A DNA stretch of 64,000 nt from Alphaproteobacteria bacterium (GTDB lineage Bacteria > Pseudomonadota > Alphaproteobacteria > Rs-D84): contig JAFUTJ010000008.1 in NCBI GenBank assembly GCA_017471445.1, positions 112,382-176,381 of the forward strand. The letters are read 5' to 3'. Below are positions 38,090 to 55,692 of this stretch, piece by piece. Below the pieces are notes generated by a model, which had not been told where the DNA came from, ran no database searches, and saw only the letters and a list, made by a program, of their open reading frames with translations. The translations under genes and the position numbers were made by a program. Each line of letters starts with the position of its first letter. The first letter of the stretch is position 1.

Positions 38090-38161
38090 AGCCCACCCCC
38101 CATACGCCATAATAATATAATCAAAAAAAATAAAATACAGTACTTTTTACATGAATACATG

Positions 38162-40229: not shown

Positions 40230-41444
40230 TTAATCAGTAACAACGACCTTTAAGAATGTTTTTTTACCTTTCTGTACGATGATTTCTGGGGCGCGGGCAA
40301 CAACAAACTTACCATCCGTTATACGGGCACCATTTATTTGGATACCCCCCTGCTCTATCATCCGTCTGGATTCACCGCGGGATGTAAACAATCCTGTTGC
40401 GACCAAAAATTCGGCCACCGGCATATCGCCCGGCATTGAAATGTTTACCGATGGCATGTTTGACATGTCCCCACCACCAAATAGTCCGGTGGCCATTTTT
40501 TCTGCATCGCGCGCCGCATCTGTGCCGTGTGCAATTTCTGTTGCCGAAAATGCCAAAATTTTCTTAACCGCGTTTAATTCTGCGCCTTGGCATTTTGACA
40601 TCTTGTCAATTTCCGCCAATGGAATTTCCGTAAATATTTTCAAGAACTTTTCAACCAATTCATCCGGTATATTGCGAAAATATTGATAATAATCATACGG
40701 GGACAATTTATCTTCGTTGACCCAAATTGCGTTACCAGCAGATTTCCCAATTTTATTACCTGCGGCATCGGTTATTAATGATGTAGACAGAACAAACGCT
40801 TCGCGGCCCAATTTTTTACGGATTAATTCAATGCCCATAATTGCGTTGCCCCATTGGTCGGCACCGCATAATTGCAATATACAACCATACTGTTTATACA
40901 GGGTCAAGAAATCCACCGCCTGAAACGTCATGTAATTAAATTCCAAGAATGTCATGCCGTTTTCCAGGCGACGTTTCACACTTTCCATGGACAGCATGCG
41001 CGGCACGGTAAAGTCGGTACCAAATTGTGCCAAGAAATCAATGTGGCTGTACCCGCGCATCCAATCATAATTATCAACAATAACCGCGTCCGACGCGCCA
41101 TCGCCAAAGTGCAAGAATTTAGAATATGACTTTTTTAATCCGGCAATATTTTTTGCCAATGTTTCTTCGGTCATCATTGGGCGACCGGTATCACGCCCAG
41201 ACGGGTCACCAATGCGCCCGGTTGCCCCACCGACCAACATTAACGGCCTGTGCCCGAATTTTTGCAGCATGCGCATCATCATCACCGGCACCAAGTGTCC
41301 CACATGCAACGAATCCGCCGTTGGGTCAGACCCCAAATATGCCGTAATTTTGCCGTTATTTAATGCATCATTTAATCCCGTCATATTTGATGTTTGGTTA
41401 ATAAAACCGCGCATTTCTAATTCGTGCAATAATTCGTTTTGCAT
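40230..41444 (-). CDS. tyrS: tyrosine--tRNA ligase
   Basis: HVGH (HIGH) motif, KIGKS (KMSKS) motif, and a C-terminal S4 domain. Confidence 0.95.
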   Translation of the reverse strand: MQNELLHELEMRGFINQTSNMTGLNDALNNGKITAYLGSDPTADSLHVGHLVPVMMMRMLQKFGHRPLMLVGGATGRIGDPSGRDTGRPMMTEETLAKNIAGLKKSYSKFLHFGDGASDAVIVDNYDWMRGYSHIDFLAQFGTDFTVPRMLSMESVKRRLENGMTFLEFNYMTFQAVDFLTLYKQYGCILQLCGADQWGNAIMGIELIRKKLGREAFVLSTSLITDAAGNKIGKSAGNAIWVNEDKLSPYDYYQYFRNIPDELVEKFLKIFTEIPLAEIDKMSKCQGAELNAVKKILAFSATEIAHGTDAARDAEKMATGLFGGGDMSNMPSVNISMPGDMPVAEFLVATGLFTSRGESRRMIEQGGIQINGARITDGKFVVARAPEIIVQKGKKTFLKVVVTD

Positions 41445-41513: not shown

Positions 41514-41774
41514 CTATCGCAAAACCGCGCCCTTTATCATTGTAACGTCTTCTTTGATGCCATCTATTTTCATTTGCAATTGGCCAATGCCCGTTTCCAA
41601 AATGGTTGTACGATTTTCCAATGCGGTTATTCGCGCATCCGCCCGTTCAATATCGGTCAAGGACGAATCTTGGCGGGCAACCCAATAAACCATACCGGCG
41701 ATAAAGGCGATTAAAAACCAACTGTCGCGCAGGGAATCGATTATTCCACGCATATTATTTTTCTGTGACATCAT
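41514..41774 (-). CDS. membrane-anchored coiled-coil protein (phage-cluster)
   Basis: One TM helix (WFLIAFIAGMVYWV) followed by a coiled coil. Confidence 0.4.
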   Translation of the reverse strand: MMSQKNNMRGIIDSLRDSWFLIAFIAGMVYWVARQDSSLTDIERADARITALENRTTILETGIGQLQMKIDGIKEDVTMIKGAVLR

Positions 41775-41971
41775 TAACCACCCTGGCCCCGTGTTATTAA
41801 TGTTTCAATTTTATGCACCAGGGCGCGTTGCCCTTCTAGCATTCTTAATTCTGCGTCGGTTGCGTTTGCGCCCAATACGCGTTCAACCGTCATCCGCCGC
41901 AGGTGCGCCATTACTGCCGCGCCTGATGGTCCGGCAAATGCGCGCGCAAAGCAATTTTCAATATTTTCCAT
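41774..41971 (-). CDS. small phage protein (Bbp19-like?)
   Basis: 65 aa, FARAFAGPSGAAVMAHLRRMT...LEGQRALVHKIETLI. It resembles small proteins found next to portal genes in alphaproteobacterial prophages. The family name is recalled, not verified. Confidence 0.35.
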   Translation of the reverse strand: MENIENCFARAFAGPSGAAVMAHLRRMTVERVLGANATDAELRMLEGQRALVHKIETLITRGQGG

Positions 41972-41990
41972 TTGTTATTTACCCCCATAA

Positions 41991-43226
41991 CTAAATCATA
42001 TTTTCGGCGGCCGCCATTTGCACAATCGGGGCCAAGTATTTTAATTCGGCATCACTGTGCAATGATATATGTTCAATTACCCCGCGCCGTGACAGTATTT
42101 GCAGCCCCCGTGTACACAACGGGCGTATAAATTCATGTAACAATCGCCCATACGTTGCCCCCAGAATGCGCATCATATCACTGTTACGGGCCAATATTTC
42201 CGTTGCGGTCATTTCTTTATCGGTCAACAATCCCAACCGGTCGGCCAACATTGCATGGCGAATGCGTTCCCGCAAATCGTTCAATATTATTTGCGAAACG
42301 TCAAAATCGGCACCACTGGACAATGGGGTCAGGCCCGAACTGCCCACGGCCTTTGGAATAATTGCACCAGGTGTCAGATTAATATTCGCCAGGTTTATTA
42401 CACCATCATCGTCCGCCATCCATATACCAGAAACGGCAATGGTTGCATTTTTTAGTACCAATTCAACAACCTTGTTCGCGGTTTTAATATCTGGCAATGT
42501 GCGCAATACCGGGCCGCGCCCGTACAATTCGCCCGACATTAATGACCAACGGAATATCAGGTACGGGTTTGTGTCAAACGTGCCACGTGCAACGATATTA
42601 TTTTCCATATTACCGCCAACATCCAACCATGCGGTAAAGTCACAATCGTCGCACAGGCATTGCACCATGCGCAATGGCATGTCTGGGTCGTGACGCATTT
42701 TGTCGGCAATGTCGGCGGGCGGTGTCCATGTTGGGTATTTTTCTGTGACATCGCGGGCGGTCATTGTTGTGGTATGAAATATTGCATTTGGCAACACGGC
42801 AATATCGGTAATGGGTATTGCGATAAAGTTAAACGCACTGTCTGCACCAATTGGATTTTCGGCCATGAACATACACGCCGTACCGTAAACAACCAAATCC
42901 ATATAGCATTGATGGACCGTTGTATAAAAATTAGAATCGTTCAGGTGCGCCCGCAATGCCGCCGCCGCGGGTTCTGGGTCGGGGGCAGAATCGCTTTCCT
43001 GTACCAGATTAATCCACAAACTTTCCGGCGGGGTCAGCAATGAATACATTGCCGCGGCCAGGTTATCCGCCGCATCGGCCGCCGTTGCGTCAAACAATGT
43101 TGCCGCATCTGAATCCGACGATGGTATGGTATACCGCCGCGCATCGTCCCAACGGTGAATCCACGGCGCACGCATATCAATTGCACGGCGATACATGCGT
43201 TGTAATTTTTCAATATCATATTGCAT
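41991..43226 (-). CDS. podovirus-type portal (head-to-tail connector) protein
   Basis: LQRMYRRAIDMRAPWIHRWDDARRYTIPSS...AADNLAAAMYSLLTPP parallels T7 gp8 (YERLKNDRAPYETRAQNCAQYTIPS...GLNNLASKLMLALFP). Start moved to MQYDIEKL (43226, RBS AAAGGA). Confidence 0.7.
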   Translation of the reverse strand: MQYDIEKLQRMYRRAIDMRAPWIHRWDDARRYTIPSSDSDAATLFDATAADAADNLAAAMYSLLTPPESLWINLVQESDSAPDPEPAAAALRAHLNDSNFYTTVHQCYMDLVVYGTACMFMAENPIGADSAFNFIAIPITDIAVLPNAIFHTTTMTARDVTEKYPTWTPPADIADKMRHDPDMPLRMVQCLCDDCDFTAWLDVGGNMENNIVARGTFDTNPYLIFRWSLMSGELYGRGPVLRTLPDIKTANKVVELVLKNATIAVSGIWMADDDGVINLANINLTPGAIIPKAVGSSGLTPLSSGADFDVSQIILNDLRERIRHAMLADRLGLLTDKEMTATEILARNSDMMRILGATYGRLLHEFIRPLCTRGLQILSRRGVIEHISLHSDAELKYLAPIVQMAAAENMI

Positions 43227-43260
43227 AACAAAATCCTTTTGGTTTATTTTTAAGTGTTTG

Positions 43261-44106
43261 TTACAGGTTAAATTCTGTATTCGCATAAATTGTCGTGGGC
43301 GTGTTGCATGTTGCACGTACCGGCATCGGGCGGCACGAAATTGCACCGGCAACCGCGTCCAGGCCGTCATCATGCGTTGCACCATTTGGTGTCCACCCAA
43401 TCATTTCGGGCAACAATTGCGTTTTTGTAATCCGTGTATGCGCATGCATGCGTCCAGACCCCAACAGTGGTTCAATCGCATCGCAAATGCGAATTTCTTT
43501 GTTCGTGTGGTTTGACACCGGGTCAATAACAACACCGATGCCGCGGGCGCGGGCAATACTGCGCATTATTTCAGGTAATGTGCCGCCAATACCGTTTGTT
43601 TCAATTGCGATGCGGCGCATTTGATACCGCGACATTAAATTCAGTATTGTTCCGCATTGCCACGTGATTGGCGAAGGGATGTTTTCTGGTGGTGACATAT
43701 ACATTACGTCGTGAATAAATACATGGCGCGATATATCGTCGCGGTACAAGATGACGCAAACACTGCCATCATGACCACGCCCGGCGGACGATGGGTCCCA
43801 ATAAACACATGCCGCATTAATTGGCCAATTGCCAATTCGCGCATGGTCTGAATCAAAATCATCGTCATAAAACTTAATTTTTTCCGGGTCCAGACGAACG
43901 CCATCCATCGGCACAAAATTTAACATCATTTGCGATGAAAAATGTCGTTCACCAACAATCGTGCGAATTTCATTTATCTTGTCGGTCCCAAAAACATCGG
44001 GCCATGTGGGCGTGCCGGCGGCATCCATAATCGGTATTCGCAACACACGATACCCTCGCAAAAAAGGAATTGAAAAACCAATTTTTTCATATACTATATC
44101 AGACAT
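43261..44106 (-). CDS. terminase large subunit, C-terminal nuclease half (split gene)
   Basis: WPDVFGTDKINEIR...FSSQMML, then the RNase-H-like nuclease signatures CVYWDPSSAGRGHDGS, IAIETNGIGG and THDDGLDAVAGA. No ATPase motifs. Its ATG shares the tetranucleotide CATG with the divergent dnaB start. Confidence 0.7.
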   Translation of the reverse strand: MSDIVYEKIGFSIPFLRGYRVLRIPIMDAAGTPTWPDVFGTDKINEIRTIVGERHFSSQMMLNFVPMDGVRLDPEKIKFYDDDFDSDHARIGNWPINAACVYWDPSSAGRGHDGSVCVILYRDDISRHVFIHDVMYMSPPENIPSPITWQCGTILNLMSRYQMRRIAIETNGIGGTLPEIMRSIARARGIGVVIDPVSNHTNKEIRICDAIEPLLGSGRMHAHTRITKTQLLPEMIGWTPNGATHDDGLDAVAGAISCRPMPVRATCNTPTTIYANTEFNL

Positions 44107-45670
44107 GGATTTTACCCCAAAAACTTTACCAACAAATTTAGAAGCGGAACAGGCCGTACTGGCCGCTGTGTTAATGAATAACCGCGCATTGGAACGTGTA
44201 TCGGAATTTTTACGTACCGAACATTTTGCGCACCCCGCACACCAAGAAATCTATAAATTGGCCGAACGTCAATTTGCCGCAGGTATTCCGTTTGACATAA
44301 TTACTGCGAAAAATTATCTGGACCAACAAGGAACACTGGAATCTGTGGGTGGGGTTGATTATTTAACCCAATTGGCCGGGGCCGGCGCAACCGTTGTAAA
44401 CGTTGAACAATATGCGCGAATTGTATGCGAAAATGCAATGCGGCGCGAACTGATTAACCTGGGGCAATCAATTACAGACGCGGCATACATTGAAGATTTG
44501 GACAATCCTGTTTCGCATCAGTTAGAGGTTGCAGAACAAAAACTGTTCGAAATGTCAACCAAAGGTTCGTCCGAGCGCGAAATTGCATCAATCGCCACCG
44601 CATTAAACGAGGCCATGCAGGAGGCCGAGGTTGCATACAAGGCCGACGGTAAATTATCGGGTTTGACAACGGGACTAAACGCGTTGGATGCGGCAATCAG
44701 TGGACTGCACCATTCCGACCTGATTATTATTGCGGGCCGTCCCGGTATGGGAAAAACAACATTGGCCATGAATATTGCGTTTAATGCCGCAAATGCCATT
44801 CTGAACGGGCGGGCAAATGACCGGTATCGTGGCGCGGTTGTATTTTTCAGTTTGGAAATGTCGCAATCGCAATTGGCGGCGCGTGTGTTATCATCGCAGT
44901 CAAAAATTCCGGCATCGTCTATGCGCGAAGGAAATTTGACAGACGAAGATTTCCTGAAAATGTCCCAGTATTCGTCGGCAATTGGGCGCGTACCATTATA
45001 TATTGATGACACGCCCGGCATGTCGGTGCCAATGATTCGTACGCGTGCGCGGCGTTTGGCACGGAAATGTGGCGGGATTGCGTTAATTGTGATTGATTAC
45101 CTGCAATTAATGACATCACCCGGCGGACGGCGCAATGACAACCGTGTCCAAGAATTATCTGAAATAACGCGTGGTCTGAAAGTATTGGCCAAGGAATTAG
45201 ATGTGCCGTTGATTGCCCTGTCGCAATTGTCACGCAGTGTTGAACAGCGTGACGACAAACGGCCACAGTTGTCCGACCTGCGTGAATCGGGTTCTATTGA
45301 ACAGGACGCGGACATTGTTATGTTCACATACCGCGAAGAATATTATTTGCAAAACCGTGACCCATCACAACGCATATCCGGAAATACCAATTCAACAATT
45401 GTTGAAAGTTGGCAAAAACGTTATGACCGTGCCAAGGGCAAGGCTGACGTTATTTTGGGCAAGAACCGTCATGGTCGCACAGATACGTTGCACATGGCAT
45501 TCTTTGGCGATTACAGTTTGTTTGATAACCTGCCGGATGATGTGGGTGACCGTGGCGATGATGGGTATGGCACACCAACAACAAATGCGCCCGCGCAATC
45601 GACCAATATGGGTGACGAAGTGCCCGATTCAATTGATTTAAGTGCGGTGCCGGATGATATGCCGTTGTAA
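44105..45670 (+). CDS. dnaB: replicative DNA helicase DnaB (with acidic C-terminal tail)
   Basis: N-terminus PTNLEAEQAVLAAVLMN, Walker A GRPGMGKTT, and IDYLQLM, ALSQLSR, LRESGSIEQDAD. Start moved to MDFTPKTLP (44105). About 45 extra D/P/G-rich residues at the C-terminus. Confidence 0.9.
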   Translation: MDFTPKTLPTNLEAEQAVLAAVLMNNRALERVSEFLRTEHFAHPAHQEIYKLAERQFAAGIPFDIITAKNYLDQQGTLESVGGVDYLTQLAGAGATVVNVEQYARIVCENAMRRELINLGQSITDAAYIEDLDNPVSHQLEVAEQKLFEMSTKGSSEREIASIATALNEAMQEAEVAYKADGKLSGLTTGLNALDAAISGLHHSDLIIIAGRPGMGKTTLAMNIAFNAANAILNGRANDRYRGAVVFFSLEMSQSQLAARVLSSQSKIPASSMREGNLTDEDFLKMSQYSSAIGRVPLYIDDTPGMSVPMIRTRARRLARKCGGIALIVIDYLQLMTSPGGRRNDNRVQELSEITRGLKVLAKELDVPLIALSQLSRSVEQRDDKRPQLSDLRESGSIEQDADIVMFTYREEYYLQNRDPSQRISGNTNSTIVESWQKRYDRAKGKADVILGKNRHGRTDTLHMAFFGDYSLFDNLPDDVGDRGDDGYGTPTTNAPAQSTNMGDEVPDSIDLSAVPDDMPL

Positions 45671-45736
45671 TTATTTTGCTTGCGTATTTGAACAATTTTA
45701 ATTAAAATTTTGTCAAGATTATCAAGGGAGATTTCC

Positions 45737-46744
45737 ATGGCCCAAGAAGAAATTATATTTCCAAATAACATTCGCAACATCCGCATGAAAAGCGGTATGA
45801 AAATGACCGAATTGGCACGGCGAACGGGGTTGTCTTTGTCGGCGGTTTCCAAGATTGAAAAAGGTGTACGCCGGTTGAACCAAAAACAACTGTTAAACAT
45901 CTGTAACATTTTGGGTTGCAAATTGTCAGACATTTTCATTCATGAATCAGACGCGGTGGCGGACCAATGGCAATCGGAAATCAAGCGCAGATTAAATGAT
46001 AATGAAGACAGCGGTCTGAAAGTATTTGGCAGTGGACTGCGCAAAATTCGGCAAAGCCGTGGCAAGACCATTGCCCAGGCGGCAAAAGATGCCGGCATGA
46101 CGTTAAGCGTGTATCACAAGATAGAGGTTGGTCAACGCGAAGTATATCAAAATGAAATTGAACCGTTGGCAAAATCGTTTGCGTTGTCGGTTGAAAACAT
46201 GTTTGATAAAATCGCGAACCTGTATAAATCTGGCGAATTAAATAAACAGATTAGCAAGGTTAAAGAACGTGTTAAGTCTGTTCTGATTCCGGGCAACCCA
46301 TTGGCCGGTATTGACATGCAAGGCAGTTTATATGGCGCAAAATTGTACGATAGTGCACGCAAAAAACTGATTCCGGTATTTGGAATACCAAATGGAAAAT
46401 CAATTGCATTCCGAAAATCTGACAAAACAATGATTGTTGCACCCGCCGGACTGGAAGGACGCAAAGGTATTTATGCCGTTGTTCCAAATGCCAAGCGCAC
46501 AGATGGTTTTATACCCGAAAAATCATACGTGTTTGCGGATTCAGAAACCGCCGCAGTCACGGGCGATTTGGCGGTTTGTATTGATTCTGATTTTACTGCA
46601 CTGGGGGAAAAGGACACCGCAACGGCACAGATTGTGCGTGTGCGCCAAGATGCCCACGGTAAACAATACGGTCAAATCGTATCACCAGATGAAAAGATTG
46701 TCGCCCCCACAATGCACAAAGTTATCATGATTGTCATGGAATAA
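45737..46744 (+). CDS. repressor-like protein with two XRE-type HTH domains and a degenerate S24/LexA-like C-terminal domain
   Basis: Two HTH units: IRNIRMKSGMKMTELARRTGLSLSAVSKIEKG and LRKIRQSRGKTIAQAAKDAGMTLSVYHKIEVG. The C-terminal beta-rich region has a CI/LexA-like layout but no clear Ser/Lys dyad. RBS GGGAG precedes the ATG at 45737. Confidence 0.6.
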   Translation: MAQEEIIFPNNIRNIRMKSGMKMTELARRTGLSLSAVSKIEKGVRRLNQKQLLNICNILGCKLSDIFIHESDAVADQWQSEIKRRLNDNEDSGLKVFGSGLRKIRQSRGKTIAQAAKDAGMTLSVYHKIEVGQREVYQNEIEPLAKSFALSVENMFDKIANLYKSGELNKQISKVKERVKSVLIPGNPLAGIDMQGSLYGAKLYDSARKKLIPVFGIPNGKSIAFRKSDKTMIVAPAGLEGRKGIYAVVPNAKRTDGFIPEKSYVFADSETAAVTGDLAVCIDSDFTALGEKDTATAQIVRVRQDAHGKQYGQIVSPDEKIVAPTMHKVIMIVME

Positions 46745-46775
46745 TTAATACATACAGACCAGAGAGAGAATATAC

Positions 46776-47450
46776 ATGACCCCAAAAGCCAGCGTTGTCG
46801 CGCAAAAGTTGTTAAATCTGTATCGGCAAGAACACGTTATATTTGGTGGGTGGTCTGCGGTAAATCCAATTTTTGTAAACGAAGCAACCGCAGACGTAAT
46901 TGCCGAAATGCGTAATCTGCCAAATGGAAAAACGTTAATCGCACATATTGAAAATCTGCGCACAGGACGTACCCCAATGAACACCATTGACCGCAGTTTA
47001 TTGCCATATGGCGGATTGATGGACGAAACCGCGGCGACAATTAAACTGACCACCGCAGAAATAACGGAACTGACAAACGGGTTGTCAAACTTTACACCCG
47101 ACCAAGACGGATTGGCGCGAATTCAATCGTTAAACGTTGTTAAAAAATTTGGCGATGAATGGTTGGTTGGTATTCGCGCAGCATTGGCCGAATACCCAGA
47201 ATTAATTGAAAAATGGGCGGTTGTACGTAAAACATATCGTGCATATTATTTATGGAAAGTGGCCAGCGATATGCTGACCACACCAATGTCAGAACGCGCA
47301 CGCGCACAATTACAGGCCGACATGCCAGATTATGAAATGTACCTGCCGATGTTTGGGGACGCAGGAACAGAACTGTTAACAAAACTGCGCACATTTATCA
47401 GCAGTATTAAACACCCAACCGCAAACAACGACGAAGGCGGCACAAATTAA
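46776..47450 (+). CDS. hypothetical protein (cassette gene 3)
   Basis: 224-aa ORF with no recognised motif. Its stop overlaps the stop of the terminase N-fragment at a TTAA (47447-47450). Confidence 0.45.
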   Translation: MTPKASVVAQKLLNLYRQEHVIFGGWSAVNPIFVNEATADVIAEMRNLPNGKTLIAHIENLRTGRTPMNTIDRSLLPYGGLMDETAATIKLTTAEITELTNGLSNFTPDQDGLARIQSLNVVKKFGDEWLVGIRAALAEYPELIEKWAVVRKTYRAYYLWKVASDMLTTPMSERARAQLQADMPDYEMYLPMFGDAGTELLTKLRTFISSIKHPTANNDEGGTN

Positions 47451-48064
47451 TCAGCATCACACGTGCGATAAATCGTGTCACGCGTATGTGGTGTGCCGAT
47501 ATAAATCATTGTACCGGCGGGTGATAATATAAAATCCAATTCACGCAATCTTTCCCGCAGGTCCGCACGTTTTTGTGATGTGTTGCTGGTGTTTGGAACC
47601 TCTATATCATCACAGATTATTAAATCGGCACGCATACCGGTTATATTGCCATGAATACCCTGGCATACCACGGATGGTTCACGAATACCAATTGGGCGGT
47701 TTATTGTTATTCGGTCAGATGACCATTCTTTTTTATTTGACGGCACCAAATCGCGACACATTGGATGGTTTTCAATTATATTACGAATGTGCCCCACCAT
47801 GCGGCACGCCAATGTACTTTCCGCCGATAAAATTAATATGCGTGTTTTGGGGTCGCGCGCCAATACGCACGCGGCAAAAATGCCAACAACGGTTGATTTA
47901 CCAGAATGTCGAAACGCCATTAACAATCCGCGGCGTGGTGGCGTACACAGCGTTTCAACCAAGAAACGCATGATTTGCCGGTGGTGCAATGGTGTTGTTT
48001 GCCCCAGGCATGCATTCCATTCATCCAAGAATCTATAAAACGCCGTAATCATTGCATATTTCAT
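47447..48064 (-). CDS. terminase large subunit, N-terminal ATPase half (split gene)
   Basis: Walker A AFRHSGKST, Walker B ADLIICDDIE, and coupling motif YIGTPHT. It ends 13 residues later. No nuclease domain. Confidence 0.7.
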   Translation of the reverse strand: MKYAMITAFYRFLDEWNACLGQTTPLHHRQIMRFLVETLCTPPRRGLLMAFRHSGKSTVVGIFAACVLARDPKTRILILSAESTLACRMVGHIRNIIENHPMCRDLVPSNKKEWSSDRITINRPIGIREPSVVCQGIHGNITGMRADLIICDDIEVPNTSNTSQKRADLRERLRELDFILSPAGTMIYIGTPHTRDTIYRTCDAD

Positions 48065-48195
48065 TTGGTGCCATGACCGTTATATAAACACAATCCTTTA
48101 TGCAATATGGGCATGTATCGCCATTCATGCAATACGGAACACAAAACGTTCTGACCCAGGTATATAATAATTTATGCATAAAAATCCCCCCCGGG

Positions 48196-48543
48196 TTATG
48201 ACATTAATTCGTCAAAGCGATTAATTAACGATTTTAATATATTCGGTCGCGTGGTTTTTATGTTGCGCAATTTTTCAATATTGCGGCGACGTTTTTCATC
48301 GTATGTTGCGCCCGATTCCGATGCAATGCGCGACAGTACGGCATCGGTTGTCATGCCACGTGTTGCAACGCCACCAGAACCATATTTTGCGCGCTGGGCA
48401 GCGATATTCTTTTTAACCAGGTTTGTTTTCGCCGTTGCGTCCGCAGCCATTTGCGCCAAGATTTGTTGGCGTTGGGTCTTGGCGGTGGATTTATTCTTTT
48501 TATAATCCAATACGTCTGTTACATCTGATACAATTTGTCCCAT
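48196..48543 (-). CDS. small basic coiled-coil phage protein (unknown; small terminase or internal protein candidate)
   Basis: 115 aa, K/R/A-rich, immediately upstream of the TerL N-fragment. Confidence 0.35.
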   Translation of the reverse strand: MGQIVSDVTDVLDYKKNKSTAKTQRQQILAQMAADATAKTNLVKKNIAAQRAKYGSGGVATRGMTTDAVLSRIASESGATYDEKRRRNIEKLRNIKTTRPNILKSLINRFDELMS

Positions 48544-48569
48544 TGTTTTCCCCCATTGTTATTTAATTG

Positions 48570-50288
48570 TTAAATTATATAGTGGCCGTATGCCGTTACC
48601 GATAACACATTTATTGGCATGGCATCGGTACCACTGATTTCCCAGATTGGCGTAAATGCGTCATATCGTGTCCCCAACATTCCAATTGATGCATCGCCGG
48701 AAAAACCGGTGGCGTTATCCGAATATATAGAATTTGGCAAAGTAACGCGCATGCCATTTAATATCAGTGACTTGGTATCGCGCACACGCACAGACAGCCG
48801 GCGTATGCGCACATGGCGCGCGTTATGTCCACCACCACGCAGTGGCATCGCCGATGCACAATATGAAAAACTGTATGCATTCATATCATTCATTGCGGTT
48901 TCATCAAAGCGTTCAATGGTATACACACCATCGCGACATACACATACAAATGTATTATGACCAATCGTGCATACAGATTGAAAATCACCATGTGTTGTAT
49001 AGTGTGACCATGCGGCAATTCCCATTTGTGCATTGTAATTCATTACCGCCATATCACCCGCGGCCATTACAACATACATGCGGCGCAACGTGTCATTATA
49101 TGTAATGTCAATTGGGTCGTGCATTAAATGTTTCGCCATTGAACATAAATCGGTTGCACGGTAATTCTGGGCCAAATCATCCAACACCAATTGCCGAATG
49201 TCGCATCCGGTACGTGATATAAACACAGTTGCACCCGATACACATTGTGGGGCCAGGTATTTGTCAGTCAAACTGCCCACCGATGTGTGTTGTTTGATAT
49301 CAATTGATGATGGGGTTAATGGTTTACTGGTAATCGCCCATTCACCAGAATCGGTCAATATTTGTAAATTATCACTGGCCACCACGGTGCATATATGTTG
49401 TGGCGATTGCGACAACAATGTTACAAAAATTGCCTCGTCATCCAGACCGGTACCGACATCAAAGTTATTATGACGGCCAACCTGGGACATCCATACGCCA
49501 CATTTGTGCGACCGCGAACCACCGAATATCAGGCGGTCTTGATGAAATGTAATACTGGTTGGCCAACCACGCGCATTTGAAAACACCGATTCACGCCAAT
49601 CGGCAACCGGGCCGGCGGGAATTGAATATGCACCGTTTACAAACGCAACCAATTGCGATTGGTTTATATATTCGCGAATTGTCCATTGTTGATTCATTAC
49701 GATAAATGTACTGCCGACTATATCGGGTGTCCAACATGCGCGATTTGCCGTAAATGTTGCAAAATTATTTCCATATTCATGCGTTGAAATTGTAATCGTT
49801 ACATCCGACGTATCGTCAAAGCGCATAAATGGCATAAACATGTCTTGATTATTATCAGAATGCGCAAATTCAAATCCGGTTAATGTAAACGTGCCACCGT
49901 TGCCGCGTAATACACGCGGGCGATAATCTGGGTGAACAAATATCATGGTATCAAAACGTTGGGCATATTGTATGCATGGAATATCATCTGTACCCCATGG
50001 CGATAATATGTCGCATACGCGCGTGCCATCGGGCGTATATATTGCAATATGTTCTGGCATAATTGCCAATATATAATTTTCATTAACACCAACACAGAAT
50101 GGCACCAGGCGCGCGGCATCATAAATATTACAAACATGCGCCAATCCAGAACGGCGAATAATACCACCACCGTCGGTTACATCCATATTTTCCAACCGCG
50201 ATAAACCATGTATATTATCGTTTGTATAAAATTCTGGGGAAACCGCACCATGCGCAAACGAAGAATACGTTTTTACAAAATTTGTCAT
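48570..50288 (-). CDS. tail tubular protein B (T7 gp12/nozzle)-like
   Basis: ARGWPTSITFHQDRLIFGGS parallels T7 gp12 NPWPSF...FFFRNRLGFLSG, and AAWSHYTTHG parallels QSWSHWDFG. Located after the gp11-like gene. Confidence 0.55.
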   Translation of the reverse strand: MTNFVKTYSSFAHGAVSPEFYTNDNIHGLSRLENMDVTDGGGIIRRSGLAHVCNIYDAARLVPFCVGVNENYILAIMPEHIAIYTPDGTRVCDILSPWGTDDIPCIQYAQRFDTMIFVHPDYRPRVLRGNGGTFTLTGFEFAHSDNNQDMFMPFMRFDDTSDVTITISTHEYGNNFATFTANRACWTPDIVGSTFIVMNQQWTIREYINQSQLVAFVNGAYSIPAGPVADWRESVFSNARGWPTSITFHQDRLIFGGSRSHKCGVWMSQVGRHNNFDVGTGLDDEAIFVTLLSQSPQHICTVVASDNLQILTDSGEWAITSKPLTPSSIDIKQHTSVGSLTDKYLAPQCVSGATVFISRTGCDIRQLVLDDLAQNYRATDLCSMAKHLMHDPIDITYNDTLRRMYVVMAAGDMAVMNYNAQMGIAAWSHYTTHGDFQSVCTIGHNTFVCVCRDGVYTIERFDETAMNDMNAYSFSYCASAMPLRGGGHNARHVRIRRLSVRVRDTKSLILNGMRVTLPNSIYSDNATGFSGDASIGMLGTRYDAFTPIWEISGTDAMPINVLSVTAYGHYII

Positions 50289-50305
50289 ATATAATTTCCC
50301 ATTAA

Positions 50306-50824
50306 TTAAAAGCGAATATTAACCAGCGAAAATGAATCAATCTCTTCGCATGGGGTGGTTGTACTGTCAATAAAGCGGGCCGTTTTTAATTCTGATTCAT
50401 ATAACGTGGCCAACATGCGAAACACATTCTGGTCACCAGTTAATGGGATACAGAATTCCAGTGCCAATTTCGTCGCCGCCAAATCAACAAAATACCCCGG
50501 AAAGCATTCAACCGGCGTGCGCGTTATTGCCAGTATGCGATTTGTTTTTCCCGGTGCGTAAATGCGGTTTCCCACAACGCGCCCACGGCATCGCACAACG
50601 CGCAGTACATTGTTTGGCAAAACAAAATACCCGCCGTCATTGCGTACTAAATCAATTTGGCGACACGCAAATCGCCACGGGTGCGACGCAATTAATCCAT
50701 CCATAATCGGTCCAAACAGTGTGCGCGACAAATTAGCCGCCGCCGTATCATCGGTCAATGCATTTATCGGACGTTCACCCAATTTTAATAATGCCATTGA
50801 ACATATATCTATCTTGGTCAGCAT
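50306..50824 (-). CDS. tail tubular protein A / adaptor (T7 gp11)-like
   Basis: ICSMALLKLGERPINALTDDTAAANLSRTLFGPIMDGLIASHPWRF parallels T7 gp11 VNDILASIGEPPVSTLEGD...[21 protein letters not shown]. Start moved to MLTKIDI (50824, preceded by a G-run RBS). Confidence 0.55.
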   Translation of the reverse strand: MLTKIDICSMALLKLGERPINALTDDTAAANLSRTLFGPIMDGLIASHPWRFACRQIDLVRNDGGYFVLPNNVLRVVRCRGRVVGNRIYAPGKTNRILAITRTPVECFPGYFVDLAATKLALEFCIPLTGDQNVFRMLATLYESELKTARFIDSTTTPCEEIDSFSLVNIRF

Positions 50825-50890
50825 AAAATACCCCCCCATATAAAATTTGGGCCGCGATATTCACGGCCCAATATGAACACACCAAATTAT

Positions 50891-51121
50891 TTATGACAAC
50901 GCCGCTGTCGTAACATTAGACGCAGTAATATTGATTCGCTTAATCGTCGTTGTATCCGATGCGTTAATGATAATAATATCACCAATATTCATCAGCGTTT
51001 TTACCGCATTAAAATACCCCGTGGCAGAAATTGTTGCCATAGTTTCGGTCGCACAATAATGCCACAATGTAAATCCATTTGCATATGCAATAACCGATAA
51101 ATTTTTATTTGTAAATGCCAT
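50891..51121 (-). CDS. small phage structural-module protein
   Basis: 76-aa ORF between the capsid and adaptor genes. Confidence 0.35.
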   Translation of the reverse strand: MAFTNKNLSVIAYANGFTLWHYCATETMATISATGYFNAVKTLMNIGDIIIINASDTTTIKRINITASNVTTAALS

Positions 51122-51147
51122 TTATCTTAATCCTTTGGTAAAAATTG

Positions 51148-51975
51148 TTAGTGTTGGTCTGCAATATCTGCACATTTAACGCGCACGATACCGTTGTTAT
51201 CAATTAATACTGCACCTTGGGACATGCTGTTGCTGATAAAGTGCGCGGCGCGTTCACCATGCCATGAAATATCGGTTTTGACATCTTGCCCGCATGCATG
51301 ACCAATGCTGGATGCATGATAGATAAAGCAATCACGATTATCATCTTTGACCGGCAATGCGTTATACATTACCCATGTAATACCCAACCATTTTTTGGAT
51401 TCAAACCCGCGTGTTAATGGCGAATCAGTTACATAATCTGCGGAAACAAATTCGTCCATTGATAACAATTCGTTCCATTGGCGTACCCCCACAACCGCAA
51501 AGCGGCGGCCATCGTCAGGAACATCGTTTGCGTTTAATATTTCAACCGCAGACAAAATTAAATTTTTGGTCAGACCTGTTGAATAATCACCAACTGCGGT
51601 TTCTGCCGAATTCATTGCATCAACGATTAATTCATCACTCTTGCGTCCCAACGCATACGCACCGGCCGACGCAACGACACGACGTTCGTCAATATTGGTC
51701 TTTAATTCATCCATACGGTCAACCCAATCGCCCGCATAGTAATCAGACAATACGCATTCAACCGGTTCATGTTCCAGATTCATAACCGGAACAATGCCGT
51801 GACGTGATTTTGTACTGGCCACGCCACGCCCAATTTTTGGGAATGTTGTGGATGCGCCAACAACACCCGATTTACTGCGTACTGTTGAACGCAGTTTTGT
51901 GCCCATTTGTTGGTAAGCCAAGTGTACATCGGCTTCGAACTGCTTAATAAAAACATTATCTATGGAAACAGACAT
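51148..51975 (-). CDS. major capsid protein (T7 gp10-like HK97 fold)
   Basis: FIKQFEADVHLAY...GASTTFPKIGRG...DELKTNIDERRVVASAGAYALGRKSDELIVDAM parallels T7 gp10 FLKVFGGEVLTAF...SAQFPVLGR...DVRSEYTSQLGESLAMAADGAVL. Confidence 0.6.
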   Translation of the reverse strand: MSVSIDNVFIKQFEADVHLAYQQMGTKLRSTVRSKSGVVGASTTFPKIGRGVASTKSRHGIVPVMNLEHEPVECVLSDYYAGDWVDRMDELKTNIDERRVVASAGAYALGRKSDELIVDAMNSAETAVGDYSTGLTKNLILSAVEILNANDVPDDGRRFAVVGVRQWNELLSMDEFVSADYVTDSPLTRGFESKKWLGITWVMYNALPVKDDNRDCFIYHASSIGHACGQDVKTDISWHGERAAHFISNSMSQGAVLIDNNGIVRVKCADIADQH

Positions 51976-52145
51976 TTTATAATTATCCTTTTATTAATTA
52001 TTAGTTTTATATATTGCATTTTATTTTGTGTGCCGGTTGTGCAATATGCGCCGGTATGCAAAAGTCGGGTCCAAAAAATGGATTGCCCGGGAAAATTCTG
52101 ATTAATGATTTCCATTTATATGCAAATCAAAAATCATAAATCAGA

Positions 52146-52202
52146 AAAAATGCCCGGCTATTAAATACCGGGCATTAAAATAAAAAACCCGCATTACGCG
52201 GG
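52146..52202 (-). terminator. two tandem rho-independent terminators downstream of the KA-repeat gene
   Basis: On the minus strand, CCCGC-GTAAT-GCGGG followed by TTTTTT (52188-52202 region), then ATGCCCGG...CCGGGCAT followed by TTTTTT (52146-52178). Confidence 0.6.
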
Positions 52203-52212
52203 AAAATAAAAA

Positions 52213-52569
52213 TTATTTTTTCTTGGTGGCTGTCTTTTTGGCGACAGTCTTTTTAACCGTTGCTTTTTTTGCAACCGGTTTTTTAGCAGCAACTTTCTTT
52301 ACAGTTGGCTTTTTCGCCGCAACTGTTTTCTTTGCAACCGGCTTTTTTGCGGCTGTTGCTTTTTTTGCAACAGGCTTTTTCGCCGCAACAGTTTTCTTTG
52401 CGACTGGCTTTTTCGCCGCAACTGTTTTCTTTGCAGCAGGTTTCGTCGCCGTTGCTTTCTTTACCGCCGGCTTTTTCGCCGCAACCGTTTTCTTTGCAGC
52501 AGGTTTCGCAGCCGGTTTCTTTGCAGCAACTGTCTTTTTCGCTGCAGATTTTAAGAATGTGAATGCCAT
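52213..52569 (-). CDS. histone H1-like lysine/alanine-rich repeat protein
   Basis: 118 aa made almost entirely of AAKKP(V/A)AKKTV-type repeats. Strong RBS GAAGGAGAG before the ATG at 52569. The opposite-strand 138-aa ORF is an antisense shadow. Confidence 0.75.
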   Translation of the reverse strand: MAFTFLKSAAKKTVAAKKPAAKPAAKKTVAAKKPAVKKATATKPAAKKTVAAKKPVAKKTVAAKKPVAKKATAAKKPVAKKTVAAKKPTVKKVAAKKPVAKKATVKKTVAKKTATKKK

Positions 52570-52680
52570 TCTTCTCTCCTTCTTGTGTCATTTTTGGATA
52601 GAACAAAATCGTTTTGTTCTTGCTTTATATTTTATATGAATAAAAAAAATTAGTAAAGGAGAAAGTAACTTTTTTTTGTA

Positions 52681-53337
52681 TTATGAATACAATTTCTTGA
52701 AACCATTTTCTATTTTGCGAATATATTCTGCATCGTTATCACGCCAATATTTTGGATCGCGCATCATGCGACGCAAGTCATCATCTGTTAAATTTTCAGA
52801 TACATTTTTTTCGGTACGCACATCTGGTTCCATTGATTGCATCATCTTGTAAATGCTTTGGATTCCCTGGGGTGTGGCGCACAATGCATCAAACGCATCG
52901 CGTGGTAAAAACTTTTCACCAAATGCATTTATTGCATTTAATGCGTCACGTGTTTTTTCATCACTACCGAAAAAATTTTTCATTTCTGACATTGCAGATG
53001 TTTCATTTTGCATTGCAAACAAATCAGATATAACAGGTGATAAAAATTCTGTTGCCAAGGAATAAATTTTTTCAACCTGGGCCGATGTTAATCCAATTTC
53101 ACGAAATTTTTGTCGCAACGAATCGTCATCAAATAAATCATTCGTTGGATAATCTGATGCATTTTCTGGCACACCAATTGCACGATTAAATTTTTCACGC
53201 GTGGCGTCATCTGAATTTTCATCTGGGATTGAAATCATTGAACCGATTTTCTTTTCCAATTCACAATATGATTTTATCAACGCATCTGTATTTAGTGTGC
53301 CATCATTGTTCTTGAATTTTTCTGGAATTTTTTCCAT
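52681..53337 (-). CDS. capsid scaffolding/assembly protein-like
   Basis: MEKIPEKFKNNDGTLNTDALIKSYCELEKKIG is typical of podovirus scaffold N-termini. Acidic and helical, and positioned upstream of the capsid gene. Start moved to 53337. Confidence 0.5.
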   Translation of the reverse strand: MEKIPEKFKNNDGTLNTDALIKSYCELEKKIGSMISIPDENSDDATREKFNRAIGVPENASDYPTNDLFDDDSLRQKFREIGLTSAQVEKIYSLATEFLSPVISDLFAMQNETSAMSEMKNFFGSDEKTRDALNAINAFGEKFLPRDAFDALCATPQGIQSIYKMMQSMEPDVRTEKNVSENLTDDDLRRMMRDPKYWRDNDAEYIRKIENGFKKLYS

Positions 53338-53338
53338 T

Positions 53339-53527
53339 TTATTTTCCTTTTGTTTCATTTGTTTGCTGCATAAAGTAAATGCCACCAATTGTAAATAATG
53401 CACCACACATCGCAAACAAATCAGAATCACCAACCATGTATGCAGCAATTGCAGATATTATTCCAATCGCAGACATTATTCGTGTGCGCGAATTTGCAAA
53501 AAAACCACCACTGAATATTTTATTCAT
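53339..53527 (-). CDS. small two-TM protein (holin-like)
   Basis: MNKIFSGGFFANSRTRIMSAIGIISAIAAYMVG..FAMCGALFTIGGIYF. Lies directly after the hydrolase gene. An alternative start is at 53548. Confidence 0.4.
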   Translation of the reverse strand: MNKIFSGGFFANSRTRIMSAIGIISAIAAYMVGDSDLFAMCGALFTIGGIYFMQQTNETKGK

Positions 53528-53540
53528 GTCTATCACCGGT

Positions 53541-53951
53541 TTACGCATAGAACAGTAATCCATCAATATCGGCAATATATCCACGCGACATTGCCCAATC
53601 TGGGATTACGCCATCATGGTGAAACATTGTTGCGCCGTAACAGTAATCTGGTAAATTCCCATGCAACATGCGTTCTGCGACACGGCAGCACATTTGCAAC
53701 CCACGATTTGCGGCATCAACATTTAATAATTCATGTTTGGATGATGTATCATTCAAAACCAGGAACATATTCTTATCAGAAACAATATCGCGAATTTCAC
53801 GCTTTGTTTTTATTGCAGCGTTCGCAATCATTGATGTTAACGCTTCGGCGGCACGCAAAGATGTGCCACCGGTTTCTGCATAAACAACACGTGCAACACG
53901 ATATACGATACGTTGCGACGCATCTGGGTTCTTTATCAGATTAAAATGCAT
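53541..53951 (-). CDS. cell-wall hydrolase (SleB/Hydrolase_2-like) endolysin candidate
   Basis: VARVVYAETGGTSLRAAEALTSMIANA...ATMFHHDG resembles SleB-family hydrolases. Start moved to MHFNLIK (53951). Confidence 0.55.
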   Translation of the reverse strand: MHFNLIKNPDASQRIVYRVARVVYAETGGTSLRAAEALTSMIANAAIKTKREIRDIVSDKNMFLVLNDTSSKHELLNVDAANRGLQMCCRVAERMLHGNLPDYCYGATMFHHDGVIPDWAMSRGYIADIDGLLFYA

Positions 53952-53976
53952 TATTGGTTCCCCCCGATAAAAAAAT

Positions 53977-54036
53977 CCCGCACAGAAATGTGCGGGACCA
54001 TTAAAAGCGAAAAATCCGCAACCAATTTGCGGACAT
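53977..54036 (-). terminator. two tandem terminators downstream of birA
   Basis: On the minus strand, TCCGCAA-ATTGG-TTGCGGA followed by TTTTT, then CCCGCACA-TTTC-TGTGCGGG followed by TTTTTTT. Confidence 0.6.
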
Positions 54037-54122
54037 AATCTCTCCTGTTGACGCATGATATACTATCACAAATTACATAAAAAGTCAAGTCATTAATTGC
54101 AAGTACCGATTTTCCGCGGTGT

Positions 54123-54791
54123 TCATAATGTTATTTCATCGCCATAGACCAAAAAATATTGTTTATCATGACGCAATATCAACGCGCCATTTTCATTTAA
54201 TCCAATCATTTTAGCCGCGTTTCCACGATAACGTACAGTTTGGTTTAATCCAATCGCCATTTCCATCCAACGCGCACGTACAGACGCAAAATCAGAATGC
54301 ATCCATTTATCCATATTTCGCATCAGCACGCGTAACACGTCCAGAACCGCAATATCTGAACAATAATCCAACATCTTGGTCGTTTTGTATTCGGGAACCG
54401 TTGGATTGTTTTTTATATTTATTCCAATTCCGCATATTACAAATGCACCGGAATATTCTATTAATACACCACTTATTTTTTTACCTGAAACCAGTATGTC
54501 ATTCGGCCATTTTATGTTTGGCGAAATACCAAATGCGGCAAGCGTTTCTGCAATTGCGACCGCAACCGAATACGACAGGCGCGCATCGCGTTCGGGTGAA
54601 TTGTAAATAAAACTGACGTACAAATTACCATGATGGGAAACCCATGTTCGCCGATAACGACCACGACCGGCACTTTGTGCGTGTGCGACAATTGCCATGT
54701 GATCAGTTGCCGTACCAGATGCAATCATTTCATGCGCACGGGTTTGTGTGCTGGGGATTTTATCAAATGAAATTAATTTATAATTTGCCAA
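54123..54791 (-). CDS. birA: biotin--[acetyl-CoA-carboxylase] ligase, group I (no N-terminal HTH)
   Basis: SAGRGRYRRTW (GRGRxGRxW), KWPNDI, GIGIN. At 222 aa it has no DNA-binding domain. Confidence 0.85.
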   Translation of the reverse strand: MANYKLISFDKIPSTQTRAHEMIASGTATDHMAIVAHAQSAGRGRYRRTWVSHHGNLYVSFIYNSPERDARLSYSVAVAIAETLAAFGISPNIKWPNDILVSGKKISGVLIEYSGAFVICGIGINIKNNPTVPEYKTTKMLDYCSDIAVLDVLRVLMRNMDKWMHSDFASVRARWMEMAIGLNQTVRYRGNAAKMIGLNENGALILRHDKQYFLVYGDEITL

Positions 54792-55194
54792 TGGTGTATA
54801 TTCCGCCGTTATTTATTATGAATTGATGTCCGAATGTTTTTCGTAATTGATAAATCGCCGTGTCAACCGCATGCGTTGCCACACACGCATCATAACCCAA
54901 TGCAACCTTTAATTCCGCCATATTTGCGCCGCCGTTATACAGGCGTGCGATAATCTTTTCCTGGGCCGGGGGTAATATCATGTCGTGCCCAAATATTTTT
55001 TTCATAATACCGGTATTGTCCATCGCCCCCAAAATTTTTGCCTTTAATTCAATCCCAGAAATTTTATCATTTAATTTGATTGTATCAAAATCAACATCCG
55101 AATCCGCAGGCAAATCAACAACAGTCGCCCCCAAATCGCCCAAGATTTGACGCCAAACAACATCTGATGTATAAATGCGAATGCCACCCAACAT
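54778..55194 (-). CDS. winged-helix (OmpR/PhoB effector-domain-like) protein
   Basis: The C-terminus EKIIARLYNGGANMAELKVALGYDACVATHAVDTAIYQLRKTFG...GGIYTIG follows the trans_reg_C pattern. Overlaps the birA start by 14 nt. Confidence 0.5.
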   Translation of the reverse strand: MLGGIRIYTSDVVWRQILGDLGATVVDLPADSDVDFDTIKLNDKISGIELKAKILGAMDNTGIMKKIFGHDMILPPAQEKIIARLYNGGANMAELKVALGYDACVATHAVDTAIYQLRKTFGHQFIINNGGIYTIGKL

Positions 55195-55283
55195 GTATTC
55201 AGGTTAAACCACCACAGAACACATGTCCATAAAAAACGCCGCAATATGCGGCAAAAAACACAATTAAATATATGACGTACAAT

Positions 55284-55686: not shown

Positions 55687-55692
55687 TCGATT

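Follow-up and report, generated by a model that had tools for sequence, protein, structure and literature searches.

A conserved cluster of T7-type particle genes with a two-piece terminase in Candidatus Enterousia: a probable gene transfer agent-like domesticated phage

The question raised by the DNA described here is why a bacterium with a small genome should keep a set of phage particle genes in its chromosome. The DNA is a 64-kb stretch (the window, by which we mean the whole of the sequence analysed) from a gut alphaproteobacterium, uncultured, in the lineage of Candidatus Enterousia (order Rs-D84), where genomes measure 0.75-1.0 Mb and a dependence on other cells is predicted. On the minus strand of the window, between tyrS (40230-41444) and birA (54123-54791), lies a cluster of particle genes in which a first-pass annotation had recognised T7-like parts, and in which it had seen the logic of either a gene transfer agent (GTA) or a capsid-forming phage satellite. 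We think it probable that this cluster is a domesticated, vertically inherited particle system derived from a T7-like (pelagiphage-like) podovirus and that it most likely works as a GTA, because the packaging, head, tail and lysis functions have all been kept under selection, because everything needed for viral self-propagation is gone, and because no small terminase conferring sequence specificity is recognisable. We class it as a GTA-like domesticated phage, with architectural features that could be matched to no described system.

Gene identities were assigned by comparing six-frame open reading frames (ORFs), every one of them, with the PHROGs, Pfam and NCBIfam profile libraries, together with PDB profile comparisons. 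Relatives were found by scanning one genome per GTDB species with an alignment of TerL-N, the N-terminal piece of the terminase large subunit (TerL); 187 genomes have such a relative, and the results for synteny given below rest on the best 80 of these. Gene order among the loci was mapped by tblastn. The searches upheld the T7-like assignments, which had been made from the letters alone, for portal, scaffold, capsid, adaptor, nozzle, lysin and split TerL. On the minus strand, the portal (41991-43226) belongs to the T7 gp8 family (PF12236; phrog_332, 2e-70) and the scaffolding protein (52681-53337) to the T7 gp9 family (PF05396), while the major capsid protein (MCP; 51148-51975) matches PF19821, phrog_3437 (3.6e-71) and chain A of PDB entry 9EG4 (1.5e-25). 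The gp11-like tail adaptor (50306-50824; phrog_394, 7.9e-29; 8CK1_E 'Connector Protein', 3e-3) and the gp12-like tail nozzle (48570-50288; phrog_376, 1.1e-77; 8CK1_A 'Tail Nozzle', 1.2e-31) both match one solved podovirus tail, PDB 8CK1. TerL is encoded in two pieces on the same strand: TerL-N (47447-48064; phrog_38 positions 272-460, 2.8e-44) comprises the terminase ATPase core with Walker A, Walker B and C-motif, and TerL-C (43261-44106; phrog_38 positions 466-701; PF22530) the last ATPase strand, the lid and the RNaseH-like nuclease. The endolysin is a SleB or Hydrolase_2-like protein of 136 aa (53541-53951, minus strand; weak match to PF07486; phrog_938, 3.9e-9), and it is followed by TM69 (53339-53548, minus strand), a gene call for a 69-aa protein with two transmembrane (TM) segments that is kept in 64 of 64 loci and that, from its sequence and position, would act as a holin. 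Head assembly and DNA packaging are fully covered by the set, which has short tail and lysis genes as well.

The modules that the first-pass annotation had reported missing are for the most part indeed missing. Neither the block nor the remainder of the window yielded an integrase, a polymerase, a primase, gp15/16, a full fibre or a recognisable small terminase (TerS), and within the cluster no candidate for TerS could be identified. Nor did these or any other phage modules appear in other parts of the window or in the flanks of relatives, which differ from its own, as they might have if the cluster were a piece of a larger prophage, an outcome that the first-pass annotation had allowed for. 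Its statement that core genes are absent did not stand as worded, since a 115-aa protein, p115 (48196-48543, minus strand), has a weak match to T7_gp14 (PF24072, E 3.4e-4, below the Pfam cutoff) and is possibly gp14-like; its ORF is intact in 79 of 79 loci. The absence of a fibre holds for this genome but not for its relatives, about 80% of which carry an extra 182-aa gene (p182) between p115 and TerL-N with a weak match to the N-terminal domain of the T7 tail fibre (E 5e-4). This mini-fibre, absent from the window, was lost independently at least eight times on a tree of 74 loci. The cluster is a chromosomal set of structural and packaging genes without replication, integration or excision genes of its own, and the only replication gene within it is a DnaB of the cellular type.

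The best 80 genomes with a TerL-N relative are all gut metagenome-assembled genomes (MAGs), assigned to Candidatus Enterousia or to unnamed Alphaproteobacteria or 'Rickettsiales', and the block, split TerL included, is syntenic in 80 of 80, that is, in every locus long enough. The conserved order is p77, p138 and birA, then lysin, TM69, scaffold, KA protein, MCP, p76, adaptor, nozzle, p115, p182 where present, and TerL-N, then p224, XRE and DnaB on the opposite strand, and finally TerL-C, portal, Bbp19 and p85. MCP has more than 3,700 homologues, of which the top 120 clusters are all 77-87% identical and lie on contigs of up to 969 kb; its identity across species is 80-91%. The p77-p138-birA trio is constant upstream, and the flanks beyond p77 and beyond p85 vary between genomes (tyrS adjoins p85 only in the window and in locus L012), so the conserved unit measures about 14.2 kb instead of 12.5 kb and spans 41514-55720. 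The tyrS-side limit at 41514 is the one drawn in the first-pass annotation, while the opposite limit has to be moved outward to about 55720, with birA, p138 and p77 included.

Constancy of this kind bears on the idea that the cluster is an active mobile element, either a temperate podovirus or a capsid-forming satellite that integrates repeatedly at the same site and draws on helper-supplied functions. IMG/VR does list 19 chromosomal copies of the Enterousia type (L093-L111) as viral genomes, and a content without replication and fibre genes resembles that of capsid-forming satellites. However, there is no integrase, excisionase, rep/pri module or att site, the DnaB inside the block is of the cellular type, the divergence between species equals that of host genes, and the downstream flank varies between genomes while the block stays constant. 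Among the 80 genomes retrieved with TerL-N, only a deletion variant (L047) misses particle genes. We consider a mobile element exceedingly unlikely, and the listing of these loci in IMG/VR means that virus-prediction pipelines mislabel them as virus or provirus. The satellite alternative of the first-pass annotation fails on similar grounds: compared with a satellite of the cf-PICI type, the element lacks int, rep and att, occupies a locus that is fixed in all species and inherited vertically, and has an adaptor and a nozzle of its own. An imperfect 13-nt direct repeat around the block, which had been offered as an att remnant, is present in the window with an 11/13 match, but it is no such remnant: the last codons of p85 make up the left copy, and the right one coincides with the -10 region of the late promoter that all relatives conserve. 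By our own estimate, an 11/13 match between two flanks of about 100 nt arises by chance roughly once in ten tries. Two MAGs contain two divergent copies of the block (L012 and L033 in JAFTTY01, L020 and L029 in JAZTWT01). True two-copy genomes were rejected as the explanation, since each copy has its own DnaB (86% identity), and these bins most likely mix two Enterousia species.

About 20 genes of the unit each form a single intact reading frame in essentially every locus, the exceptions being contig ends and L047. Pairwise NG86 estimates of dN/dS, for which dS was 1-2 and so saturated, were 0.04 for p77, 0.06 for MCP and portal, 0.065 for p76, 0.08 for TerL-N, 0.13 for the adaptor, 0.14 for the nozzle, 0.15 for TerL-C, 0.18 for the scaffold and 0.24 for the lysin, as compared with 0.06 for DnaB, 0.06 for XRE and 0.125 for birA. 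Purifying selection on the particle genes is as strong as on housekeeping genes. Co-divergence was evaluated with a Mantel test of particle-gene protein distances against DnaB plus birA distances, which gave r 0.85, a value reached by 0 of 999 permutations. The GTA-like logic proposed by the first-pass annotation is strengthened by this combination of synteny in all 80 genomes, intact ORFs, dN/dS of 0.04-0.24, divergence that tracks that of DnaB and birA, and host genomes below 1 Mb; the element is conserved, vertically inherited and under purifying selection across the host lineage.

These results also bear on a different explanation, namely that the cluster is a defective prophage remnant whose particle genes have no function and which is held in place by the essential dnaB operon inside it. 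In its favour, dnaB, XRE and p224 are embedded without intergenic DNA, and L047 has deleted particle genes and evidently survives. That locus (JAZLBQ010000007.1, 9641-14580) carries two clean deletions, one from MCP residue 70 to the fibre gene and one from TerL-C residue 90 to Bbp19; it keeps DnaB, XRE, p224, TerL-N, lysin and scaffold, and looks like a natural knock-out of particle function. The particle genes are therefore dispensable for life, whereas the DnaB-XRE-p224 cassette apparently is not. However, linkage does not protect reading frames, and some 80 species have kept about 17 particle and lysis genes intact, with dN/dS of 0.06-0.24. Moreover, genomes of less than 1 Mb shed useless DNA, and the regulatory signals of the cluster are conserved with compensatory changes in their stems. 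The selection analysis thus largely refutes the functionless relic, and we regard it as very unlikely. A mobile element in recent spread is excluded by these results as well.

The two pieces of the terminase are separated by three plus-strand genes that encode DnaB, an XRE-family protein with two HTH domains, and p224. When TerL-N and TerL-C were joined in silico, they gave a one-piece alignment with intact T7-like terminases over residues 8-453, and the alignment with T7 gp19 (PDB 4BIJ) passes directly across the junction, near gp19 residue 216. By our reading of this alignment, the break would fall between the helix next after the C-motif and the final strand of the ATPase core; with a break inside the core, a single fold would have to be rebuilt from the halves. 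Conservation across 72-83 species is at least 98% for Walker A (AFRHSGKST), Walker B (LIICDD-E) and the C-motif (GTPH), as well as for the nuclease motifs of TerL-C (YWDPS, ETNG-G and HDDGLDA), of which YWDPS and HDDGLDA are invariant. A split intein or an intron-interrupted terminase was considered and rejected, because the halves abut in the TerL profile (positions 460 and 466), which leaves no room for intein halves, and the insert consists of three opposite-strand protein genes. Among more distant relatives of TerL-N in a library of 1.8 billion proteins, the closest are mostly intact proteins of 450-515 aa. A 501-aa protein of pelagiphage Hodr was discarded as a comparator because it shows no BLASTP similarity to TerL-N or TerL-C, and other intact TerLs were used.

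Phage Aeh1 offers a partial parallel, in that its nrdA gene is reportedly split by a homing-endonuclease gene and yet remains functional. In both cases inserted genes divide an essential enzyme gene into two separately translated halves, and the halves of the Enterousia TerL are conserved and presumably reassemble. Unlike in Aeh1, the insert is an opposite-strand operon of host replication and regulation genes, with no homing endonuclease and no intein or intron signatures. A related split is found in an IMG/VR record flagged as provirus, L111 (IMGVR_UViG_2820136564_000001, 4731-10749), which has TerL-N, a reversed DnaB and TerL-C, with MCP 73% and DnaB 56% identical to those of the window. 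In place of XRE and p224 it has an 834-aa ORF without a Pfam match, and there is no scaffold upstream of its capsid gene. From its sequence, L111 would be an older or alternative form of the terminase split, and since it too has dnaB inside, the split probably predates the Enterousia radiation.

The DnaB of the cassette (44105-45670, plus strand) scores 608 bits against NF006606 (cutoff 540) and 510 bits against TIGR00665 (cutoff 385), and fails the TIGR03600 phage_DnaB model with 416 bits (cutoff 499). Its match to the cellular alphaproteobacterial equivalog, in a genome of about 900 genes, suggests that it is probably the cell's replicative helicase. This weakens the earlier view that the three genes inside TerL are the element's own replication and regulation genes. 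The XRE-family regulator (45737-46744, plus strand) has, by its profile matches, two HTH_3 domains and an untyped C-terminal domain. The third gene encodes p224 (46776-47450, plus strand), a clade-restricted protein of 224 aa with homologues only in the Enterousia clade; its AF2 model is all-alpha (pLDDT 76), and a search of PDB folds gave no match, the best E being 0.4.

The cassette is joined to the terminase halves with hardly any sequence to spare. The stop codons of TerL-N and p224 overlap as TTAA (4 bp) in 54 of 82 loci, and the start codons of dnaB and TerL-C overlap back-to-back as CATG in 35 of 76, the remainder lying within 17 bp; in the window the overlaps are 4 bp and 2 bp, respectively. 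A promoter-like site for dnaB, TTGAAA-16-TACTAT (44070-44097, plus strand), lies inside the first codons of TerL-C and coincides with TerL-C codons 4-16, in which all three codon positions are conserved. The site, within the TerL-C start at 44047-44106, ends 7 nt before the dnaB ATG. These features suggest that the dnaB mRNA may be nearly leaderless and that the start of TerL-C is a doubly constrained sequence. A strict terminator scan of the 3.3-kb cassette found terminators in 2 of 75 loci on the cluster strand and in 0 of 75 on the other, as against 59 of 64 for the short leaders between birA and the lysin.

Those leaders form part of a set of regulatory signals. The late promoter (TTGACT, 17 nt, TG-n-TAGTAT with an extended -10; 54060-54088, minus strand) was found by promoter scan, and its -35 element CTTGACTT and -10 element TGATAtTAT are at least 95% conserved in 64 loci. 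Between it and the start codon of the lysin lie two tandem intrinsic terminators (53974-54034, minus strand). At least two terminator-like hairpins are present in the late leader of 63 of 64 loci, compared with 0-4 loci at control gene junctions, and the stems vary between species with pairing kept. The terminator claims for this leader were based on per-sequence scans and inspection and not on RNAalifold, which returned 3 pairs only, since MAFFT misaligns the variable hairpins. The leader also revises the lysin gene, which had been read as a 171-aa ORF starting at 54056; the gene encodes 136 aa, and the extra 105 nt are the conserved promoter and terminator leader. Further along the transcript, a terminator scan identified two terminator-like hairpins after the gene of the KA protein (52149-52202, minus strand), where terminators are conserved among the loci, followed by conserved TGGCGC...TGCATAACC blocks ahead of MCP. 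A sigma-54 promoter upstream of MCP (TGGCGC...TGCAT) was ruled out, since the spacing varies between species. A terminator after MCP-p76 (50847-50871, minus strand) is present in 73 of 77 loci, at a position that we take to be analogous to that of T7 Tphi. No known RNA families were detected in the cluster with Rfam.

Upstream of birA lie two further candidates for regulators. The first, p77 (55284-55517, minus strand), is a 77-aa HTH protein with weak matches to HTH_26 and HTH_23; it is 84-100% identical across species and, by its dN/dS, the most conserved gene of the block. A homologue (59%) stands beside the portal in a phage-like contig (L116), and p77 is therefore probably a retained phage regulator. 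Its upstream region (55518-55720, minus strand) contains, in a 62-locus alignment, two TTTGTCAA repeats together with CTAGGAAAT and TGGAATAAAATCAA blocks, all of them likely to be operators or promoters, and TTGTCA promoter-like matches occur in the same region at 55664 and 55652. An intrinsic terminator follows p77 (55237-55253, minus strand) in 63 of 63 loci; past it comes the promoter of p138-birA, TTGGACA, which is conserved. The second candidate, p138 (54778-55194, minus strand), is a small protein with a C-terminal winged-helix domain according to its AF2 model (pLDDT 87) and Foldseek, and its 3' end overlaps the start of birA. The C-terminal 59-73 residues of the model superpose on winged-helix domains with rmsd 2.4-3 Å; the top Foldseek matches include OmpR-type effector domains, with E-values of 0.02-0.2 only, a PDB profile search gave weak matches to AdcR and ArlR, and some homologues are named wHTH by NCBI. 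A profile-profile comparison with a PhoB effector sequence gave no match. On the model, p138 is a probable transcription factor. The gene that follows, birA (54123-54791, minus strand), encodes a group I biotin-protein ligase (TIGR00121, 141.8 bits against a cutoff of 83); it is a housekeeping gene of the host that in every genome stands between these regulators and the late operon.

If these signals and genes act together as their arrangement suggests, p77, p138 and the XRE protein would set an on or off state. The near-consensus late promoter would fire into the two tandem terminators, so that particle genes would be made only when termination is overcome. The late transcript from the lysin to TerL-N would then continue antisense through p224, XRE and dnaB into TerL-C, portal and p85, because it meets no terminator and no intergenic DNA. 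This antisense transcript would express the second terminase half and the portal, and would interfere with expression of the helicase and the repressor. TerL-N and TerL-C would assemble non-covalently into one terminase and, without a sequence-specific small terminase, heads would be filled with host DNA, whose packaging by the particles we infer from sequence. The packaged DNA may be condensed by the histone H1-like KA protein, and lysin and holin would release the particles. A short tail with only a gp14-like pore protein would deliver DNA to the periplasm of sister cells, where, by analogy with the GTA of Rhodobacter capsulatus (RcGTA), recipient functions would likely be needed to bring it across the inner membrane. 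The boldest form of this scheme describes an independent GTA family of T7-type parts, universal in one lineage of reduced-genome gut symbionts. It would have a two-polypeptide terminase, the sole helicase gene and the repressor embedded head-to-head and tail-to-tail, antisense late transcription as a commitment switch that couples replication shut-off to particle production, and an H1-like packaging factor. We offer it as a tentative proposal, which taken as a whole we hold to be doubtful.

Several considerations weigh against gene transfer as the function of the cluster. That function is read from gene content and evolution only, and the antitermination and read-through steps are deduced from sequence signals. 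The co-divergence test is not independent of linkage, all conserved genes being linked to the apparently essential dnaB, and that dnaB is the host's own helicase gene, copy number included, is itself probable rather than certain. The split of the terminase lies inside the ATPase fold, and a working two-piece enzyme is putative. Terminases of the T7 type do not normally work without a small subunit and specific ends, neither of which was recognised in the cluster. Finally, gp15/16 and a full fibre are missing and the mini-fibre has been lost repeatedly, so DNA delivery to a recipient is uncertain.

The last point favours an explanation in which particles are made and selected, but not for gene transfer. 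They might serve programmed lysis with release of DNA or nutrients in a partner-dependent symbiont, act as a decoy or defence against related podoviruses, or package their own chromosomal neighbourhood in the manner of lateral transduction. Purifying selection shows that there is a function and not which one, the parts for delivery are reduced (gp15/16 absent, the mini-fibre lost at least eight times), and dependence on other cells is predicted for Rs-D84 bacteria in general. As for packaging of the neighbourhood, the nearest solved capsid is 9EG4, whose asymmetric unit contains seven MCP chains; this indicates T=7 for that capsid and is no measure of the Enterousia head. If the Enterousia capsid were likewise T=7, the head could hold the whole element of about 14 kb. 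On the other hand, the ATPase and nuclease motifs of TerL are conserved together with portal, adaptor and nozzle, which is hard to explain without packaging and use of the tail, and for a role in lysis only, lysin and holin alone would suffice. We judge a function other than transfer to be rather unlikely, and continue to prefer the GTA-like role.

The origin of the GTA-like element in podoviruses is apparent from comparison with pelagiphage-type phages (Hodr, OQ414635; the IMG/VR contig L113), which have homologous MCP (43-58%), portal, Bbp19-like protein, scaffold, p76-like protein, adaptor, nozzle, fibre N-terminus and TerL, and which share the local order scaffold-MCP-p76-adaptor-nozzle. 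At 32-35 kb, these phages also encode early and replication functions and large internal proteins; their fibre has 653 aa, and their TerL, of 507 aa, is intact. Several parts are shortened in the Enterousia element, with a decoration protein of 76 instead of 269 aa, a nozzle of 572 instead of about 820 aa, and a fibre of 182 aa or none. The portal block also differs in position, lying downstream of TerL-C in the element and upstream of the scaffold in the phages, as in L113, where the order is portal-Bbp19-scaffold-MCP-p76-adaptor-nozzle-...-fibre (653 aa)-TerL (507 aa, intact). Measured against an autonomous T7-like podovirus, the element has the structural module but, in the block, the window and the relatives' flanks, neither polymerases, primase-helicase, gp15/16, fibre and TerS nor an integrase. 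The closest 'phage' record is a 5084-bp human faecal virome contig (L092, MT838907.1), with MCP 61% and portal about 40% identical and with portal-Bbp19-scaffold-MCP-p76-adaptor-nozzle as its order, the normal one for phages; it may represent a relative that still lives as a phage in the same habitat.

GTAs of the RcGTA type (Rhodobacter capsulatus, Caulobacter, Dinoroseobacter) resemble the Enterousia element in having head, tail and packaging genes in one cluster that lacks genes for integration or replication, in vertical inheritance under purifying selection in alphaproteobacteria, and in having lysis genes and dedicated regulators. They differ in that their cluster is non-homologous and siphovirus-like, of the HK97 type, with a tape measure and intact TerL and TerS. 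The Enterousia element has instead a T7-type portal (PF12236) and scaffold (PF05396), PF22530, adaptor and nozzle, along with a split terminase, an embedded helicase and an H1-like gene. It does not belong to the Rhodogtaviriformidae, since the cluster has no tape measure or tail tube and all its matches are of T7 type. BaGTA of Bartonella is also a domesticated phage cluster in host-associated alphaproteobacteria in which particle genes are physically, and possibly functionally, linked to DNA replication; its link is a phage-derived run-off replication origin and not the host dnaB, and its structural genes, as described, are of a different, non-T7 type. A GTA-like element whose morphology is podovirus-like, FpGTA, occurs genus-wide in the gut bacterium Faecalibacterium as an operon of about 10 kb plus a second operon (PMC12946183). 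It differs in its Firmicutes host and in that DNA packaging by it was shown experimentally, the Enterousia element being known from genes alone. In this comparison, which is one by description, no split terminase or embedded helicase is reported for FpGTA (PMC12946183).

A search of full-text literature turned up no account of a phage-like cluster from Enterousia or Rs-D84, nor one of any GTA of T7 type. To our knowledge, only a handful of GTA families are recognised and none is built from T7-type parts. We likewise know of no precedent for a conserved two-piece TerL, for a nested helicase operon with overlapping start and stop codons, for a lineage-specific H1-like head gene, or for a promoter-terminator-terminator leader. 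The element would add an independent domestication in a lineage that is common in human, ruminant, pig, horse and chicken guts. About 1.5% of a 0.75-1.0 Mb genome is spent on it, which suggests that exchange of DNA, or some other function of the particles, is important to a bacterium with a reduced genome and a dependence on partners; exchange might benefit it by countering mutational decay. The same features give testable hypotheses on how domesticated phages are wired into host control.

The remaining genes of the cluster are small. The KA protein (52213-52569, minus strand), named for its K/A/P repeats, is histone H1/HC2-like (PF07382 HC2, 46.6 bits against a cutoff of 40). It stands between scaffold and MCP in all Enterousia-type loci, where related phage contigs have unrelated genes, and is specific to the domesticated lineage. 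The number of its repeats varies (ORFs of 89-194 aa), and its end is nearly always the Cys-containing CAKK(A/P)CAKKK. The 76-aa p76 (50891-51121, minus strand; phrog_18004, 2.5e-12) has a weak match to orf16 (9EG4_H), a 269-aa capsid-bound protein present in 7 copies per asymmetric unit; only the N-terminus of orf16 is matched, and p76 is probably a minimal capsid decoration protein. A 65-aa Bbp19-like protein (41774-41971, minus strand; PF25181) follows the portal, as it does in related phages. The last gene, p85 (41514-41771, minus strand), is a gene call for an 85-aa protein with an N-terminal TM helix and a coiled coil, for which searches of PHROGs and Pfam profiles returned no significant family match.

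Other genes of the window lie outside the conserved unit. Genes for LrgB and LrgA, holin/antiholin-like regulators of murein hydrolases (37032-38110, minus strand), lie 3.5 kb from the cluster and adjoin a gene for an M23 peptidase (39029-40114); these genes might possibly be linked with the release of particles. A 347-aa protein (19462-20505, plus strand) matches PHROG 2276, 873 and 7182 with its last ~110 residues. These are phage tape-measure, endolysin and 'tail injection transglycosylase' families, and the protein may be either a lytic transglycosylase of the host or what is left, in a new place, of a gp16-like ejection protein. A reverse transcriptase (RVT_1, 358 aa; 25393-26469, minus strand) is flanked by genes without Pfam or PHROG matches (24148-25389, plus strand; 26586-27479, minus strand). 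A fibre in the window diversified by a diversity-generating retroelement (DGR) using this enzyme was ruled out, as no template/variable (TR/VR) repeat lies nearby and the neighbours have no phage matches; the enzyme may belong to a retron or to a defence system. Finally, a type I restriction-modification pair (Methylase_S, 3903-4826; N6_Mtase, 4829-6691) lies beside tRNA-Thr (3385-3460), and this stretch (3385-6691), with 34-37% GC, looks like a small acquired island.

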